Virus record (IMG/VR): IMGVR_UViG_3300026518_000009
Coordinates: 16,247 to 80,246 of that record
From: a virus
DNA: 64,000 nucleotides
Reading direction: 5' to 3' (one strand)
The notes beneath the pieces are model-generated. The model saw only the letters and a list, made by a program, of their open reading frames with translations, did no database searches and was not told where the DNA came from. Every line of letters starts with the position of its first letter. Within the stretch, counting starts at the first letter, position 1. Below, piece after piece: positions 26,938 to 39,917 of this stretch. The position numbers were made by a program, and so were the translations under genes.

Positions 26938-28947
26938 CTAATCAAATAATGTTCCATTATGTTTATTCATATCTTTAGTATTTATATTATATACTTTATG
27001 TATAATATCTAATACCTTTTTTTTATACCAAATATAATTAATATCATAATCGTTAGAATAATAAAATTTATTAAATATTGTAACATTATATCCTTTAATT
27101 ACATTTGTAAGTTTATTAGATAGTAAATTACGTTTTAAAAATACTCCTCCGTGATTACTTACAAAATATCTATTATCTTTTTGAAGAATTTTTATATTTA
27201 ATTTACCATCTTTTATAGTATGATATTCACTTCTAAATTGTGAACCAACTTTAATGCTTATACAATAGTCATATATATCATAATTTTTAATTATATTATC
27301 AATATCTTTATTATTATTTATAAAATATTCATATAATGTTTTTGCTATAGCTGGTGCATAATATCCCTTATCAATTTTAATATCAAATGAGAAATCACCT
27401 TTAGTTTTAATTTCATTATTATCTTTTAAAGTTATATAATCATTAACTGTAGTTCTAATATACTTTGTATATTTTGTATATACAACCCCAAAATTATATT
27501 TTTCTGCCCAAGAATTACAAATATTATAATAATCATCTAATTTATCATTATCAATAATTGATACAATTCCATCTGTATTAGCACTAATAACATGAATGTT
27601 ATTTAATTCTAAGTTTTCTATTAATGACATTAAATATAATTGACCATTTATAGTAACTTTATACATTGCTTTTAAATCATATAACCAACTGTATTCAAAA
27701 CCAAGCTTACCATATATAGCATTAATTACAATTTTAAGTATTCCAGCGGTATCTTTATCACCATTTACTTTTGCTTTTAATCTAAGTTCTGTAAGATTTT
27801 TTACTAATTTAACAAATATAGAATTAACATGCTCAGGATGAATTTTAAGATTAATCATAATACTAGGATAAAAACTATTAACATCTGCATCAATTATATT
27901 ATCATACTCATTATTAGTAAATATTCCTCCACTATCTACACTATGTAATCCTCCAGTAGCAAATTGATATGCAGTTCTATTAAATATTAATAGTTCTTTA
28001 AATGTATCTCTACCAATGTTAATACTTATATTCTTTAATGAATCTAGAAAAGATTTAAGTTTATCAGAGTTAAATGTAATATTTTTATCTATAATATCAA
28101 TTAATTTAATTTTACGTCTATATGTACGCTTATTATAATATTCCCAATAAGTTAATCCTGTAGCACTTTGATAAAACTTACTCATTAATCTATCAGCAAC
28201 ACTACTTCTACTACTAGATAATACATTAACTTCATACTTTTTACTAGTAACAATTCTTTGTTTTAATTCTGACTGACTATAATTATATAGATTTAAAGTT
28301 ATTAAGACATCATTAATGTTGTAATCAATGATACTAGATAAATGCTCATTAATAACATATCTATCAAATGATTTTAAATCAGGAAATAAACCATCATAAA
28401 ATTTAATACTTTCTATTTCAGTAATAGGAGGCATTGTATAATCTTCAATCTTATAATACTTTAATGCTATTGCTACCTGTTTTAATGATATTTTACGTTT
28501 ATCAAGATAATGTAAACTCATTAAATCAATACTAAACCATAAATTAGAATAAGGTATGTTATTATCTTTTCTATAATTACCTGGATAATTAATAATAGTA
28601 TCATTAAAATCTTTTAATTTCTTAGTAATAATATCTGTATTATTATATTCATGTAATTTTTCTTTTATAATATAATCTAATACTATATTATCATATTTAT
28701 TAATATTATATCCAACTAATACTTCTGTATGTTTATTCTTTAAGAAATCTACAAGTGCTTGTAATTGATTAGTTTCGTTAAATACAATAAATATTTTAGG
28801 ATTCATTATATTTAATGCAGCTCTCTTTTCATTATCATCTTTGTTTATATCGGCTGCAATATACCTATCAACGCCTTTTGCATTGATAGGTATAAATGTA
28901 GCCGTAAAACAATTAGGAAATACTTCAATATCATATACATATGTCAT
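26938..28947 (-). CDS. polB: DNA polymerase family B (crAss-like)
   Basis: Exo YDIEVF, GYNINKYD, YNINDV; Pol DADVNSFYPS, KIVINAIYGK, NTDG. Confidence 0.95.
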   Translation of the reverse strand: MTYVYDIEVFPNCFTATFIPINAKGVDRYIAADINKDDNEKRAALNIMNPKIFIVFNETNQLQALVDFLKNKHTEVLVGYNINKYDNIVLDYIIKEKLHEYNNTDIITKKLKDFNDTIINYPGNYRKDNNIPYSNLWFSIDLMSLHYLDKRKISLKQVAIALKYYKIEDYTMPPITEIESIKFYDGLFPDLKSFDRYVINEHLSSIIDYNINDVLITLNLYNYSQSELKQRIVTSKKYEVNVLSSSRSSVADRLMSKFYQSATGLTYWEYYNKRTYRRKIKLIDIIDKNITFNSDKLKSFLDSLKNISINIGRDTFKELLIFNRTAYQFATGGLHSVDSGGIFTNNEYDNIIDADVNSFYPSIMINLKIHPEHVNSIFVKLVKNLTELRLKAKVNGDKDTAGILKIVINAIYGKLGFEYSWLYDLKAMYKVTINGQLYLMSLIENLELNNIHVISANTDGIVSIIDNDKLDDYYNICNSWAEKYNFGVVYTKYTKYIRTTVNDYITLKDNNEIKTKGDFSFDIKIDKGYYAPAIAKTLYEYFINNNKDIDNIIKNYDIYDYCISIKVGSQFRSEYHTIKDGKLNIKILQKDNRYFVSNHGGVFLKRNLLSNKLTNVIKGYNVTIFNKFYYSNDYDINYIWYKKKVLDIIHKVYNINTKDMNKHNGTLFD

Positions 28948-35549: not shown

Positions 35550-35885
35550 CTACATTATTTTCTTTATAATAAACTTATTGTTTTCTATTATACCTTTTAT
35601 CTTTTGACCATGTTTAACTACACTCCAATATTGTGTTATTATATTACATTTAGTACAATTACCTTTATTATTCCTCTTTGTCCAAGCAATATGTTTATTA
35701 TTTTCAGGTTTAGAATATAAATATTTATATAATTTATTATTATTTATATCTAAATTATCTATATATAACTCAACTTCATTAGATAATATAGCAGTAAATT
35801 TACCATTATAATATTTAATTCTAGCAATTCTAAGATTATCTCTAACCTTAGAATTGCTATTAATTAATCCATCCTTAAAATTCAT
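35550..35885 (-). CDS. hypothetical protein
   Basis: 111-aa ORF with a CTKC motif. Confidence 0.6.
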   Translation of the reverse strand: MNFKDGLINSNSKVRDNLRIARIKYYNGKFTAILSNEVELYIDNLDINNNKLYKYLYSKPENNKHIAWTKRNNKGNCTKCNIITQYWSVVKHGQKIKGIIENNKFIIKKIM

Positions 35886-35888
35886 ATT

Positions 35889-36383
35889 TTATTTTGTTAT
35901 TATTGTACAAATTACTCTTTTATCAGGTCTAGATATAATTTTAAATCTATGTCGTCTAACATCTTCAATATCTTCTCCATTAATATTAACAGTATATTTT
36001 CTACCATTAATATTAGTTATAACTCCTTGTTGAGATTTAAAATTATATTTTGCAAGATTATGTAATAAAGGTTTAAATACTACAACAATATCTCCTATTT
36101 CAACTTTATTAGGAATTATTTGTCTTGTATATTCAAATTTATCACCATCATGTACTAAATTATATTGTTGATAGTTTAATTCACCTTTAATATTATTATT
36201 AACAACATAATATTTCATCAGTTTACAATCTGTCTTATTAACTATAACATTATTAGTTAAAGTTAATCGTACTTTACCTACTTTCTTTACCGTATAAAAT
36301 AAATTATTATATTTAATTATACAACCTTTTACAAAATGTAATGTAGGATTTAATACTGGAAAAAGTTTTATTATACCTTTCAT
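35889..36383 (-). CDS. hypothetical protein
   Basis: 164-aa ORF, SH3/KOW-like beta-rich segments. Confidence 0.65.
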   Translation of the reverse strand: MKGIIKLFPVLNPTLHFVKGCIIKYNNLFYTVKKVGKVRLTLTNNVIVNKTDCKLMKYYVVNNNIKGELNYQQYNLVHDGDKFEYTRQIIPNKVEIGDIVVVFKPLLHNLAKYNFKSQQGVITNINGRKYTVNINGEDIEDVRRHRFKIISRPDKRVICTIITK

Positions 36384-36389
36384 AATATT

Positions 36390-36494
36390 TTAAATTATTT
36401 TAATTAATAAATATATTGCAGCAATAATAAGTATACTTATTAGAAATATAACTATTATATTACCTGCAATGATTAATATTTTATCTGTTTTCAT
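36390..36494 (-). CDS. single-TM microprotein (34 aa)
   Basis: MKTDKILIIAGNIIVIFLISILIIAAIYLLIKII; ATGA-coupled to the upstream microprotein. Confidence 0.55.
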   Translation of the reverse strand: MKTDKILIIAGNIIVIFLISILIIAAIYLLIKII

Positions 36495-36610
36495 AATATA
36501 GATATTAAATTACTAATAATTATATAAAATCCATATATAGCAATAGCAATAGCTCCAATTAATGTTAATGTTGAACCTACTACTACTATAAAATTTACAA
36601 TAGTTTTCAT
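36491..36610 (-). CDS. single-TM microprotein (39 aa)
   Basis: MKTIVNFIVVVGSTLTLIGAIAIAIYGFYIIISNLISIL. Confidence 0.55.
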   Translation of the reverse strand: MKTIVNFIVVVGSTLTLIGAIAIAIYGFYIIISNLISIL

Positions 36611-36622
36611 TTTATTATGTTT

Positions 36623-36690
36623 TAAAAAGAGTGTGCAACCGTGTATTATCCATCTCCTCTGCCCCACTTTCGGTAATTGTTACACACTCT
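36623..36690 (-). ncRNA. Candidate structured RNA / terminator-like hairpin with large purine-rich loop
   Basis: 12-bp stem AGAGUGUGUAAC/GUUGCACACUCU (U-G pair only on the minus strand) followed by UUUU. Confidence 0.45.
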
Positions 36691-36695
36691 ACTAT

Positions 36696-36956
36696 TTAAT
36701 TATATTTAAAAGTTAAACATGGATATAAATTATCAATGCTTACATTATGTAATTCATCAATAATTTCAATTATTGCTGTATTATCATCATTATTAACTTC
36801 TACAACAACTCCTAAATAACGTTCTTCACCAAGATAATATATTATTTTATCACCTGGTTTTAAATTAGATTTCATTCTCTTTGTTTGTGTTTCTATATAC
36901 CATACATATCTAACACCTAATAATAATAATATTATTATTCCTATTTTAAGTATCAT
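36696..36956 (-). CDS. membrane-anchored small protein (N-terminal TM + KOW/SH3-like domain)
   Basis: Hydrophobic N-terminus, LKPGDKI...GVVVEV; YajC-like architecture. Confidence 0.65.
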   Translation of the reverse strand: MILKIGIIILLLLGVRYVWYIETQTKRMKSNLKPGDKIIYYLGEERYLGVVVEVNNDDNTAIIEIIDELHNVSIDNLYPCLTFKYN

Positions 36957-36988
36957 TGTTTTTATTATTTATGATTAATAAATATATT

Positions 36989-37258
36989 TAAACACTATGC
37001 TTACTCATAGTGTTAAGGAACTTAATTAATACTAAATATATTAATCGACCTTACATCTAAATCGTTGACAGTAAGATTACTTGTTCCACTTATAACTTAT
37101 CTAGAATTTATAAGGTATCTTTACAATTAGTTGAACAAGTTTAACTCTAATTGCAGTCCTCACTAATGTAGAGCAACTATCACTTTCTTAAATGCTATTA
37201 TATCTCTAACCTTATATCTCAATTGAGTATATAAGTAACTTGATTATAGCTGTCATAT
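36989..37258 (-). ncRNA. Candidate ~270-nt multibranch, pseudoknotted structured RNA
   Basis: Seven helices and two long-range loop pairings found by eye; three mismatches on + become G-U pairs on -. Confidence 0.6.
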
Positions 37259-37260
37259 AG

Positions 37261-37584
37261 TTAGTTATTAAATAATAAACCTCCTATTGCAGCTCCTAAC
37301 ATTAATGTTAATATTAAAAATGTAAGTAACCAACCAATTGTTAGATTATTTACATTATCAGTACCAGATACTATTATTGCTTTATAATATTTATTATTTT
37401 GTTTAATAATAATATTATTTTTAATATTACCAATATTTGAAACATGTACCATCAATACTGTATCAGCTTTATTAGCATTAAATATTTTCATTGCAGATAA
37501 TGGAATACTATTTACTTGCTTTACTGTTGTACTACATGCAGAAACTAACATTATTGTAAATAGAATAATAATTAATTTTTTCAT
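37261..37584 (-). CDS. putative lipoprotein with C-terminal TM helix
   Basis: Signal peptide MKKLIIILFTIMLVSA-C; C-terminal hydrophobic helix. Confidence 0.75.
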   Translation of the reverse strand: MKKLIIILFTIMLVSACSTTVKQVNSIPLSAMKIFNANKADTVLMVHVSNIGNIKNNIIIKQNNKYYKAIIVSGTDNVNNLTIGWLLTFLILTLMLGAAIGGLLFNN

Positions 37585-37612
37585 TATTTTAATATTATTT
37601 ATGATTAATAAA

Positions 37613-37735
37613 ATTACTACCTTTAAAACTATTTCTAGTAAAACTTGGTAGTATCGAAATTAGTTTTAATTATTGTGGCATCTCACCACTTTACACTAAT
37701 ATTAAGTGTGGCTGTTGTAACTAGCTTAACCGGTC
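37613..37735 (-). ncRNA. Candidate structured leader: small hairpins + H-type pseudoknot
   Basis: UUAAAACUA.UUUC/GAAA.UAGUUUUAA stem; loop UACUACC pairs with downstream GGUAGUA. Confidence 0.5.
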
Positions 37736-38154
37736 TATTTTTTATAATATTTTATTTTTGTACTTTTTTACATTACATTATATAAACAAATTATATATTA
37801 TTAATAAAATATAGTAAAATGTTTATTATTTACTAAATGTTGATTATTATTGATTAATGCTTATTGCATGATTTATAGATAGTTATTAAATAGTGATTAA
37901 TAAGTATGTAATAATGATTAGAAAATTACATTATATAATAAGGGGAAAATAGAGAGAGTTATGGTGAGAAGTAAAGAGGGAAGAAGGGATAGTTCCACAC
38001 TTCATTCTTTATCTTTACATTAATTACATTTATGTATTATCCTTCATTTTATCTTTCACAAAATATTTATTATTTTCTTGTTATTTATAATTTATAATTC
38101 TATTTATTACTTTATTACATCATTTATCTATATCTTGATAGTATATGTTTGTAT

Positions 38155-38379
38155 TTAAGATATTGGTTCTTCAATTAAAGAATCATCTATTTCAACTGTT
38201 TCTATTGCAACTATTTTAAATATAGGTATATATTTATTAGAAGAAAAATAATTATAACCTAATACTTCATATGCAATTTTAATAACATTAATACCAAGTT
38301 TTTCAACTTTACTATTATTTGTAGCAAGATATTCTTTTACTACATTTCCTTCTTCTGCATAAATTTTATTAAAAATCAT
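38155..38379 (-). CDS. hypothetical protein
   Basis: 74-aa ORF. Confidence 0.6.
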   Translation of the reverse strand: MIFNKIYAEEGNVVKEYLATNNSKVEKLGINVIKIAYEVLGYNYFSSNKYIPIFKIVAIETVEIDDSLIEEPIS

Positions 38380-38404
38380 TATCTTAAATTTTTATTTTAT
38401 TATA

Positions 38405-38439
38405 TAAAAAAAGCAACAGGATATTTCTACCCTGCTGCT
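38405..38439 (-). terminator. Intrinsic terminator
   Basis: AGCAGCAGGGUA-GAAA-UAUCCUGUUGCU followed by a U-run on the minus strand. Confidence 0.85.
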
Positions 38440-38447
38440 ATGTTGTT

Positions 38448-38843
38448 TTATGATTCTGTTGATACAGCTTCTTCTTGTTGAGCTTTAACAATTTCATCAC
38501 CAATCAAGACATCATCAACGATATTAACATCACCAATCAAAGATGTAGCCTGAATAATCTCAATAGGTGAAGAAATTTCACCAAGATTTGTTACAGACCA
38601 AACTTTAGATATACCATTTCTTCCATCGTGTGTCTGATATTCATGGCGACGATTGGTATCATTTACAGAAATTGCATAAGTTTTACCAACTTCAAATCCA
38701 TACATTTCTGCGGATGTTCCAGCCATTACTATCATACTACGTGGATATGCTCCAGCAATTGGAGAACAAAATACAGGCATCTTACCTTGTTTATCAGGAA
38801 CAGTACTTCCCTGATATTCACTAATTTTTACTACTGCGTTCAT
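38448..38843 (-). CDS. first leftward gene; hypothetical, possibly OB-fold-like
   Basis: 131 aa, visibly higher GC, own terminator, acidic C-terminal tail. Confidence 0.8.
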   Translation of the reverse strand: MNAVVKISEYQGSTVPDKQGKMPVFCSPIAGAYPRSMIVMAGTSAEMYGFEVGKTYAISVNDTNRRHEYQTHDGRNGISKVWSVTNLGEISSPIEIIQATSLIGDVNIVDDVLIGDEIVKAQQEEAVSTES

Positions 38844-38859
38844 AGCTATAAATTTTTGT

Positions 38860-38931
38860 GCAATAGTCCTGAGCTATTGCGGTTATTGTTAAATCTGTAT
38901 CCAGGAAATACAGATACCAACGGGGATACCG
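38860..38931 (-). promoter_or_regulatory. Twin hairpins with complementary loops in the 5' leader
   Basis: GCAATAG/CTATTGC and ATCTGTAT/ATACAGAT stems; loops TCCTGAG and CCAGGAA. Confidence 0.6.
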
Positions 38932-38979
38932 CAGGCTGAATTTTAGTATGGGGTCTAAGAATAAGGTGTTCCACACTCT

Positions 38980-39135
38980 CATTAACATTAACATTAACAT
39001 AAAAAATTAATATCAACATTAATATAAATATCAATATCAACGTTAACATTAGCATTAATACTTTCACTAATACTAATATTAACATTAATCTTATTACTAT
39101 AATCAATATTTATCTTAATATAAACATTTATATTA
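38980..39135. repeat. Degenerate hexamer tandem array (consensus YATYAA, ~25 units)
   Basis: CATTAA CATTAA CATTAA CATAAA...TATCAA CATTAA TATAAA TATCAA TATCAA CGTTAA CATTAG CATTAA... Confidence 0.85.
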
Positions 39136-39428
39136 TTTATAATTCCTATATAATCTATAATATAATATTAATTTTTATTAACATTTATTATAGTTATATA
39201 TTATAAATGATATATATTTTAATAATTGTATTTATATAATATTAGGAATATTATTACTAAGCGGGGATATAAATATAATATATATAGTAGTGGGGTATTT
39301 ATATAAAAGTAAAGTAGGAATAGTATTACAATAACATTACTGTATTTTATTTCTATTGGTATTTATATTTTGTAATATAGTTTTAGTGTAGTTTTAATAT
39401 ATGTATTAATAAGTATTATATTAAAAGT

Positions 39429-39469
39429 AATATTAAGAGTATTATAATTATTAATATTAAGAGTATTAT
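39429..39469. repeat. 17-bp direct repeat
   Basis: AATATTAAGAGTATTAT at 39429 and 39453. Confidence 0.7.
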
Positions 39470-39518
39470 TATTTATTAATATTTGTTTATTTATATTTGC
39501 TTTGCTAAGATTATTTGG

Positions 39519-39550
39519 CAAAGTTATAATATTTTTTTAATATATTCAAG
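39519..39550 (-). promoter_or_regulatory. Bacteroidota sigma-A-type promoter (leftward)
   Basis: CTTG-N20-TAACTTTG on the minus strand. Confidence 0.6.
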
Positions 39551-39730
39551 TATTTTAACATTTTTTAACTTATGAATATATAATTATATATAATATAGTT
39601 ATATATATTAATATTAATGTAAATTACTATTTATTAATAAGTTATTAATATACATTATAATATAGTTACTATCCTATACTTTATTATATATATTACACAA
39701 GAATAAATATTAATTATTTTTACATTATAG

Positions 39731-39761
39731 CTTGATTTTTGAAAATATTTGATTATTTTTG
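39731..39761 (+). promoter_or_regulatory. Bacteroidota sigma-A-type promoter (rightward)
   Basis: CTTG-N19-TATTTTTG upstream of the late module. Confidence 0.55.
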
Positions 39762-39822
39762 CATATAAATAATGATTATGATTTATTTTTAATTTATACT
39801 TTTGTGTGTTGTTATGGTGAAT

Positions 39823-39860
39823 ATAAGTTAGGGGAGTTTAATTATTCCTCTAACTTATTT
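39823..39860 (+). terminator. Hairpin in the leader of the late module (terminator/attenuator-like)
   Basis: ATAAGTTAGGGGAG...TTCCTCTAACTTAT with G-U pairs on +. Confidence 0.6.
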
Positions 39861-39917
39861 AATAAGAATAATAATAATTTAATTAATATATTTAATAACA
39901 GTTTAAATTTATAACTT

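Follow-up and report, generated by a model that had tools for sequence, protein, structure and literature searches.

Members of the Crassvirales are among the most abundant phages known. Their early polymerase is a two-barrel enzyme carried in the virion, and to our knowledge almost nothing is known of the cis-signals that run their early gene expression. Here, we describe a new RNA motif, selected, structured and located on the sense strand, that is common to five crAss-like phages. In the phage from which we started, it forms the last of four spacers free of open reading frames (ORFs), termed segments A to D, at the start of the leftward genes of a 64,000-nt stretch of DNA (the window; bases 16247-80246 of the 80,246-bp IMG/VR virus record IMGVR_UViG_3300026518_000009, estimated completeness 87%). 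A preliminary description made from the sequence of the window had presented these spacers as a series of pseudoknot or kissing-loop RNAs that may belong to one undescribed RNA-based system. All four ORF-free segments, and likewise the intervening genes, lie where that description had placed them, and no hidden ORFs appear in the segments when TAG is read as glutamine or TGA as tryptophan. What emerges from our analysis is one well-supported new RNA motif family (D) and one conserved structured leader (A), with segments B and C unproven. On balance, and with modest confidence, we read the spacers as cis-acting parts of leftward early mRNAs rather than as a linked set of pseudoknot RNAs. With its invariant core, its fully covarying stem and its recurrence at an equivalent position in the early units of five divergent crAss-like phages, D offers a concrete handle that can be mutated, used as bait for a binding factor and employed to search new genomes.

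A covarying stem around an invariant core in segment D

Segment D (36628..36690, minus strand) consists of a 12-bp closing stem (AGAGUGUGUAAC/GUUGCACACUCU) around the invariant 17-nt AAUUACCGAAAGUGGGG, a variable middle and the likewise invariant AAUACACG, followed by a run of four U residues. Elements of the same build occur in four further phages: at L045:904-986 in a JGI metagenome contig; at L089:7839-7892 (identical with L071:1083-1136) in the 98-kb genome G001, with a middle of 6 nt and a stem of 16 bp; at L090:6077-6215 (minus strand; the L067 locus) in the 122-kb genome G002, with an insert of ~76-90 nt; and at L091:10394-10445, with a middle of 4 nt and a stem of 21 bp. We define the D-type motif by a covarying closing stem, an invariant AAU(U/A)ACCGAAAGUGGGG directly 3' of its 5' arm and AAU(A/CA)CACG directly 5' of its 3' arm. 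All five members conform to this definition and score between 31.8 and 83.2 bits with covariance model R2. The D model was built from three members; the two left out, L090 and L091, were recovered at 50.6 and 31.8 bits. In each of the three whole records searched (G001, G002 and G000, the window's own), the model finds a single copy.

D gives our strongest result, and the evidence for selection on its structure lies in the closing stem. In the L045 element, the same AAUUACCGAAAGUGGGG and AAUACACG lie directly against the closing stem as they do in D, and the stem sequence is wholly different (AAAAUCAUAUAG/CUAUAUGAUUUU versus AGAGUGUGUAAC/GUUGCACACUCU). Across the five sequences, all 12 closing-stem pairs have changed on both sides in a compensatory fashion, and the core has stayed constant while its flanks diverged completely. 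Standard pairs are formed in 98.3% of the closing-stem cells, and none of 500 shuffles reaches any of these measures. When the 3' partner was slid out of register as a control, pairing fell to 33-56%, and no slid control exceeded 58%. Since the invariant cores beside both arms fix the register, the covariation does not stem from the way the alignment was fitted to the model. Covariation in relatives, the absence of which would have counted against the proposed RNAs, is full for the closing stem of D, and the hairpins of segment A show compensatory and wobble changes, as discussed below.

The stem also carries information about the strand on which it acts. It contains U-G wobbles and one A-C cell, and the minimum free energy (MFE) is lower for the sense than for the antisense strand in 5/5 members (-17.2/-13.7, -20.7/-19.3, -16.8/-10.9, -37.5/-33.8 and -21.0/-10.9 kcal/mol). 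Taken together, wobbles and lower sense MFEs argue for an RNA rather than a DNA cruciform. The bias of G-U pairs toward the gene (minus) strand, noted earlier for the window, thus holds for D in five homologues and for A in one relative. Four of the five members have a U4 run where the stem ends.

These data bear directly on a reading in which D, or the short motif AGTGTGGAAC described below, acts as DNA, either as a promoter or recognition site of the virion RNA polymerase or as a replication or packaging signal. The model for the former would be phage N4, whose early promoters are extruded hairpins. Such a role would agree with the core AATTACCGAAAGTG-GGGG, which does not vary and is present in one copy, in the manner of polymerase or origin signals. 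AGTGTGGAAC, for its part, has exactly two copies, each upstream of a leftward unit, and the 5' arm of D is a one-mismatch copy of it. Moreover, in the crAss-like Cellulophaga phage phi14:2, no early promoter motif was found, and the protein gp66 transcribes denatured DNA in vitro (bioRxiv 10.1101/2020.03.07.982082). A double-stranded or cruciform signal should be strand-symmetric, however, whereas D has its U-G wobbles on the gene strand alone, and in every member it is the sense strand that forms the more stable fold. In addition, pairing of the closing stem is conserved but its sequence is not, U runs follow the stem, and one copy per genome is few for a class of early promoters. We consider action as DNA quite improbable.

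D-type motifs appear to be rare and limited to crAss-like phages. Searching GenBank phages with D alone by blastn returned one chance-level match, and a first core pattern with an allowed gap of 10-40 nt had no match in viral and genome contigs, the true gaps being 4, 6 and >40 nt. A scan of IMG/VR with a 15-mer of the core gave 31 loci, two of them real, and later scans added L091. The covariance model rejects every hit of the core pattern in bacterial genomes, as it does those in 78 further viral loci. The spacers had been said to match no known RNA class, and this holds: Rfam 15 at its gathering threshold gave no hits across the whole window, nor in L089, L090, L091 and L045, and at E<=10 over 36000-39400 just three chance-level microRNA or intron matches were obtained, all outside the four segments. 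Self-cleaving ribozyme cores, CRISPR-repeat mimicry and template repeats of diversity-generating retroelements were considered by eye as well and set aside, because no core matched, Rfam gave no hit and the genome holds no second copy.

All five members of the motif lie in contigs with crAss-type genes. The genome that holds the window (24% G+C overall) carries crAss-type TerL, portal and MCP genes (matches to phrog_6681, phrog_6547 and phrog_11589) and an ORF of >3,900 aa that runs past the window edge. A giant RNA polymerase ORF is one criterion of the Crassvirales, and the genomic context typical of the group (TerL, portal and MCP genes, giant ORF, divergent modules) is present. Its Dda-like helicase finds its best GenBank matches in crAss-like phages at 33-37% identity. 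By gene content, the combination of crAss-type genes, giant ORF and a helicase this distant identifies the phage as a divergent marine member of the Crassvirales. As for the other members, crAss-type MCP genes are present in G001 and G002, both of them complete genomes; L091 has a crAss-type TerL and shares the gene order from exonuclease to TerL with the window; and L045 encodes a helicase 67% identical to that of the window, with synteny for the 164-, 111-, 86- and 106-aa genes. In searches for relatives, neither the first leftward gene, searched in IMG/VR and JGI metagenomes, nor the helicase as a single protein led to any, and a 22-sequence helicase alignment retrieved distant loci only (<=37% identity), while a 4-sequence alignment recovered loci L045-L050. 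Comparison of the region with GenBank phages by blastn gave no match, and ARAGORN detected no tRNA or tmRNA.

Gene directions in the window diverge at an extremely A/T-rich region (~38,980-39,917), and the four spacers occupy the first 2.5 kb of the leftward unit. D holds a corresponding place elsewhere: wherever the context suffices, it runs in the direction of the small genes that flank it and against that of the MCP or TerL gene, 0.6-5.6 kb inside the unit diverging from the packaging/structural module. In the window and in L045, D sits just after a stop codon and 15-35 nt upstream of a start codon. In the window it is followed by two overlapping ORFs for transmembrane microproteins with hydrophobic translations (36491-36610, 39 aa, and 36390-36494, 34 aa; minus strand), neither of which has a family hit in Pfam or PHROGs. 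Both are absent from L045, where D lies directly upstream of the homologue of the 164-aa gene and different genes precede it. In G001 and G002, D is found inside ORF-free gaps of 680-900 nt among tiny ORFs, and a tblastn search with neighbour proteins in L089, L090 and L091 revealed no shared neighbour of D. The preliminary description had suggested that the spacers might be coupled, as one system, to envelope-modifying genes. With different neighbours of D in each phage and its core alone in common, this coupling is not supported, nor is the idea of a single linked system; what stands of the proposed RNA-based system is at least D as a selected, structured element of the sense strand.

A further reading takes some or all of the spacers as stand-alone, abundant non-coding RNAs (ncRNAs) that act in trans, for instance as decoys, sponges or anti-defence RNAs, with D as a protein-binding module. 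Its closest precedent is phi14:2, in which two long early intergenic regions, at the g004-g005 and g005-g006 junctions, are transcribed in the sense direction as abundant ncRNAs of unassigned function, above the level of most genes and lasting through infection (Drobysheva et al., bioRxiv 10.1101/2020.03.07.982082). Both phages are marine and crAss-like and combine small early genes, one of them for a membrane protein, with long ORF-free spacers. The position of D within long ORF-free gaps in G001 and G002, the invariant core on a variable stem, which would suit a binding platform, and the G+C content kept up in the segments fit this picture as well. On the other side, the segments resemble nothing in the initial 9 kb of phi14:2, where the g004-g006 spacers lie, by sequence or covariance model, and the spacers of the window are shorter (85-570 nt), with genomic layout as the point of comparison. 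The tight placement of D between stop and start codons in the window and L045 fits a role in cis. We regard trans-acting RNAs as unlikely.

The conserved leader of the first leftward gene

Comparison with a relative suggests that segment A is a conserved, hairpin-rich 5' leader of a putative single-stranded DNA (ssDNA)-binding protein gene. Leader A (38860..38936, minus strand) comprises three hairpins (38916-38936, 38893-38915 and 38860-38880) and lies 16 nt upstream of the first leftward gene. Its MFE of -25.6 kcal/mol is lower than expected from dinucleotide shuffles (z -3.55; 0/200 shuffles as good). The gene itself (38448..38843, minus strand; 131 aa, 35-40% G+C) encodes a protein with an acidic C-terminal tail. 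Directly downstream, a terminator scan found a hairpin (38412..38439, minus strand; 12-bp stem, 4-nt loop, U7; z -5.78) with all three features of a canonical intrinsic terminator, i.e., a short G+C-rich stem, a loop of ~3-8 nt and a U tract directly after.

Two homologues of the 131-aa protein are present in ENA, at 84% and 74% identity. The gene call of the closer one, P0122, begins 44 codons upstream, translating through the leader and thereby exposing its sequence; a 1-nt indel before the true ATG indicates that this stretch is non-coding. As far as the read-through reveals, the first 60 nt, which hold AGTGTGGAAC (retained and read as M-W-N) and the first hairpin, have no visible change, which is unexpected beside a protein with 16% amino-acid divergence. 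The remaining 63 nt do differ. In hairpin 2, an A-U pair has become G-U and a G-C pair has become G-U, changes that are tolerated on the mRNA strand only, and in hairpin 3 a U-A pair has become C-G. We infer that the hairpins of A were preserved in this relative by compensatory and wobble changes.

The kissing loop proposed for segment A would join its two 7-nt loops through a 5-bp match. Such a match is rarer than the complementarities in B and C (P ~0.009, uncorrected) and is kept in one relative as U-G, though the same change also lengthens hairpin 3. A kissing loop in A is thus unproven.

The product of the first leftward gene resembles an ssDNA-binding protein rather than an envelope protein. 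Neither Pfam nor PHROGs yielded a hit, and a search of the PDB with the family's sequences returned noise only. Leads in the ESM Atlas pointed to DUF3127 clusters and to clusters of the single-stranded DNA-binding protein SSB, and the top Foldseek hits are the OB folds of RPA and bacterial SSB, at E-values of 0.07-0.3 and from an AlphaFold model of low confidence (predicted local distance difference test score 55), so that these fold matches serve as leads only. Together, they make an OB-fold ssDNA-binding protein the probable identity. As a side observation, the equivalent unit of L091 opens with a gene (L091:9242-9781) for a 179-aa protein that likewise ends in a strongly acidic tail, EEELKKAEEEED, and has no detectable similarity to the 131-aa protein of the window.

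If the identity is right, leader A invites comparison with phage T4, in which an autoregulated, structured leader precedes gene 32 for the phage ssDNA-binding protein. In both cases a structured 5' leader stands before an SSB gene, here a putative one, within a unit with sharp limits and, probably, high expression. The two leaders are unrelated in sequence, and the SSB assignment draws on weak fold and language-model leads. In our main reading, A belongs to a strongly delimited single-gene unit made up of motif, leader, putative ssDNA-binding protein gene and canonical terminator. The leader probably determines how stable the mRNA is or how well it is translated, and the encoded protein may contribute by autoregulation.

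The 5' edge of leader A is marked by the first copy of AGTGTGGAAC (38968..38977, minus strand), preceded by hexamer repeats of the AATGAG and TGTTAA type. The 80-kb genome holds two exact copies, both on the minus strand and both directly after AATGA, with ~0.03 expected from base composition. The second copy (37992..38001, minus strand), located 416 nt upstream of a lipoprotein-like gene, aligns with the first at z 3.7. Behind it come a G-free, C/U-rich tract (~37940-37990) and then A/T-rich sequence that leads into segment B. We consider AGTGTGGAAC a candidate promoter or 5'-end signal. Over 37940-37995 (minus strand), the ~50-nt G-free tract behind the second copy shows a G+C skew of +0.7 on the plus strand, and the variable part of the D loop is purine-rich. 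Directly upstream of the first copy, at 38978-39110 and within the divergent region (here 7-17% G+C), hexamer-periodic TGTTAA/TATTAA repeats could represent a promoter UP-like element or origin iterons.

Segments B and C and their proposed pairings

Two further spacers separate the terminator of the first leftward gene from segment D. Segment B (37613..37735, minus strand) contains small hairpins and a 7-bp helix (UACUACC/GGUAGUA), followed by UUUU and a 19-mer shared with C. It lies upstream of the lipoprotein-like gene (37261..37584, minus strand), the ORF translation of which comprises 107 aa. The protein has a signal peptide of lipobox-like type and, at its C terminus, a hydrophobic helix; Pfam and PHROGs give no family hit. 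Segment C (36989..37258, minus strand) is free of ORFs over its 270 nt and contains several hairpins. At its end stand a 9-bp hairpin (AACACUAUG/CAUAGUGUU), a tail rich in U and A, and the shared 19-mer. Downstream of C, an 86-aa gene (36696..36956, minus strand) encodes a protein with a transmembrane-helix anchor and a YajC-like match to PF02699 that stays below threshold (E 8.6e-5, 22.8 bits versus a cut-off of 28.2). Beyond this match, PHROGs and Pfam yielded nothing for the nine or ten small proteins of the region. That two leaders end in the same sequence, as reported earlier, is real: the 19-mer TTATTAATCATAAATAATA is present in exact copies at 36963..36981 and 37593-37611 (minus strand), each ending 6-8 nt before a start codon. 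Both copies sit inside a 47-nt alignment of B and C (z 7.1), i.e., the last ~47 nt of the two segments are paralogous, and a tail similar to this shared A/U-rich end follows the D element of L045. The final hairpins of B and C are each followed by U/A-rich tails and contain fewer than three G-C pairs.

Helices are present in all four segments at the positions first proposed for them. How far they exceed background was measured against dinucleotide shuffles, and by this measure the signal is clear for A and only modest for B and C, at z-scores of about -2. On the minus and plus strand, respectively, z-scores are -3.55 and -1.5 for A, -2.36 and -0.83 for B, -2.05 and -1.75 for C and -2.2 and -2.1 for D; A and B thus fold better on the minus than on the plus strand. 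In a scan of the genome with 100-nt windows, which covered the minus strand only and extended up to window position ~37,900, C and D fall within the top ~2% or so but are much weaker than the strongest hairpins. The strongest local folds in the scanned part lie elsewhere on the minus strand, at 28805-28904 (z -10.6) and 35805-35904 (z -8.7), the latter being a 26-nt inverted repeat (35813-35868) in the 5' coding part of the 111-aa gene.

The pairings between loops and distal sequence on which the pseudoknot description rested do not rise above chance in B and C, as individual 7-8-bp matches are abundant in A/U-rich sequence. For complementary Watson-Crick 7-mers, ~3 are expected and 8 observed in B, and ~11 are expected and 20 observed in C (P ~0.05); for complementary 8-mers in C, the corresponding numbers are 3.4 and 8. 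Such complementarities are common by chance, and the proposed pairings are therefore not evidence for pseudoknots. B and C do not belong to a pseudoknot or kissing-loop class on these data, and the portrayal of the spacers as a series of such RNAs is not supported. More generally, A/U-rich phage spacers are easily over-read.

It is quite possible, though somewhat short of an even chance, that B and C are decaying remnants of lost genes or plain spacers whose helices reflect the background folding of A/U-rich sequence. The z-scores of only about -2, the similar values for both strands of C, the marginal excess of complementary k-mers and the lack of detected homologues all agree with this, as do the different genes upstream of D in the syntenic L045. 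Base composition and paralogy speak against it. The G+C content of B and C is 25-30%, about twice that of other intergenic DNA of this genome. Overall, the segments range from 25 to 40% (C 25%, D 36%, A region 38-40%), compared with 10-16% for the remaining intergenic DNA. The last ~47 nt of B and C are paralogous down to the exact 19-mer, and ORF remnants are undetectable under three genetic codes. B and C may be functional leaders or attenuators.

Proposed cis-acting roles in early transcripts

In the cis-acting reading that we favour on balance, segments B, C and D share a common plan, in which a stem-closed folded domain is followed by a U-rich tract, a 15-35-nt A/U-rich leader and the AUG. 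This is the layout expected of attenuators, terminators or processing sites that would punctuate a polycistronic early transcript. Comparable punctuation is found in the early operon of T7, with its intergenic RNase III processing hairpins, and in lambda, with its nut sites and terminators. In common with these, the window has a series of intergenic stems between short early genes, with U-rich tracts just before the next start codon, although the D core is unlike boxA/boxB and the R sites of T7.

For D, the variable, covarying stem would serve to display the invariant core of ~25 nt, with insertions of 4 to ~90 nt tolerated in between. A conserved factor, either a phage protein or the polymerase, may bind this core, and its binding would decide whether stem and U run stop transcription or mark a processing site. 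D would thereby control the step from the first small genes to the replication genes that lie downstream. Terminator-embedded aptamer riboswitches such as the HMP-PP thiS motif (PMC6478431) offer a partial parallel: conserved nucleotides lie inside a stem with a U run, so that one hairpin could both sense and terminate. D differs in that it matches no Rfam model, places its core in a large loop or junction and not in the shoulders of the stem, is phage-borne and has neither a consistent downstream gene nor a candidate ligand.

A more specific possibility is that D is a dedicated stop, pause or hand-over signal of early transcription in a clade of crAss-like phages, read by the virion RNA polymerase or by a phage antiterminator, which would mark the border between immediate-early and replication genes. 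We hold this for rather unlikely; if true, it would make D the first cis-signal known for crAss-type early transcription.

Several observations weigh against cis-acting roles. For D, the adjoining genes differ between phages, with the core alone common at the nucleotide level, and no candidate for a binding factor was identified. As a terminator it would be atypical: the L091 member has no U run, the loop, which ranges from 28 to ~115 nt among members, is in D, at 39 nt or more, far larger than in efficient intrinsic terminators, and the stems in other phages are A/U-rich. For A, the covariation was read from the P0122 read-through protein rather than from DNA, assuming minimal codon changes and with silent changes invisible. 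For B and C, homologues were not found, z-scores are modest and complementarities near chance. Finally, the sole sequencing run that holds this DNA is a hydrothermal-vent DNA metagenome, probably its source; transcription of the segments is presumed.

Further features of these early regions touch on D. The 164-aa protein encoded downstream of it (35889-36383), the gene of which is kept beside D in L045, has a faint S1/CSD-like match to PF22708 (E 0.011) and is a possible RNA-binding partner of D. The loci around D in the two complete genomes, L089 (G001:42000-54000) and L090 (G002:1-12000), are mosaics of ORFs of 50-130 aa and ORF-free gaps of 400-900 nt at ~30% G+C. Small early genes that alternate with long ORF-free spacers thus repeat the architecture of the window on a larger scale. 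A second non-coding island, absent from the window, is common to G001 and G002 (L089:6005-6084 and L090:8037-8117; 81 nt, 73% identity, E 2e-5) and hints at additional conserved elements, RNA or DNA, in early regions of this kind.

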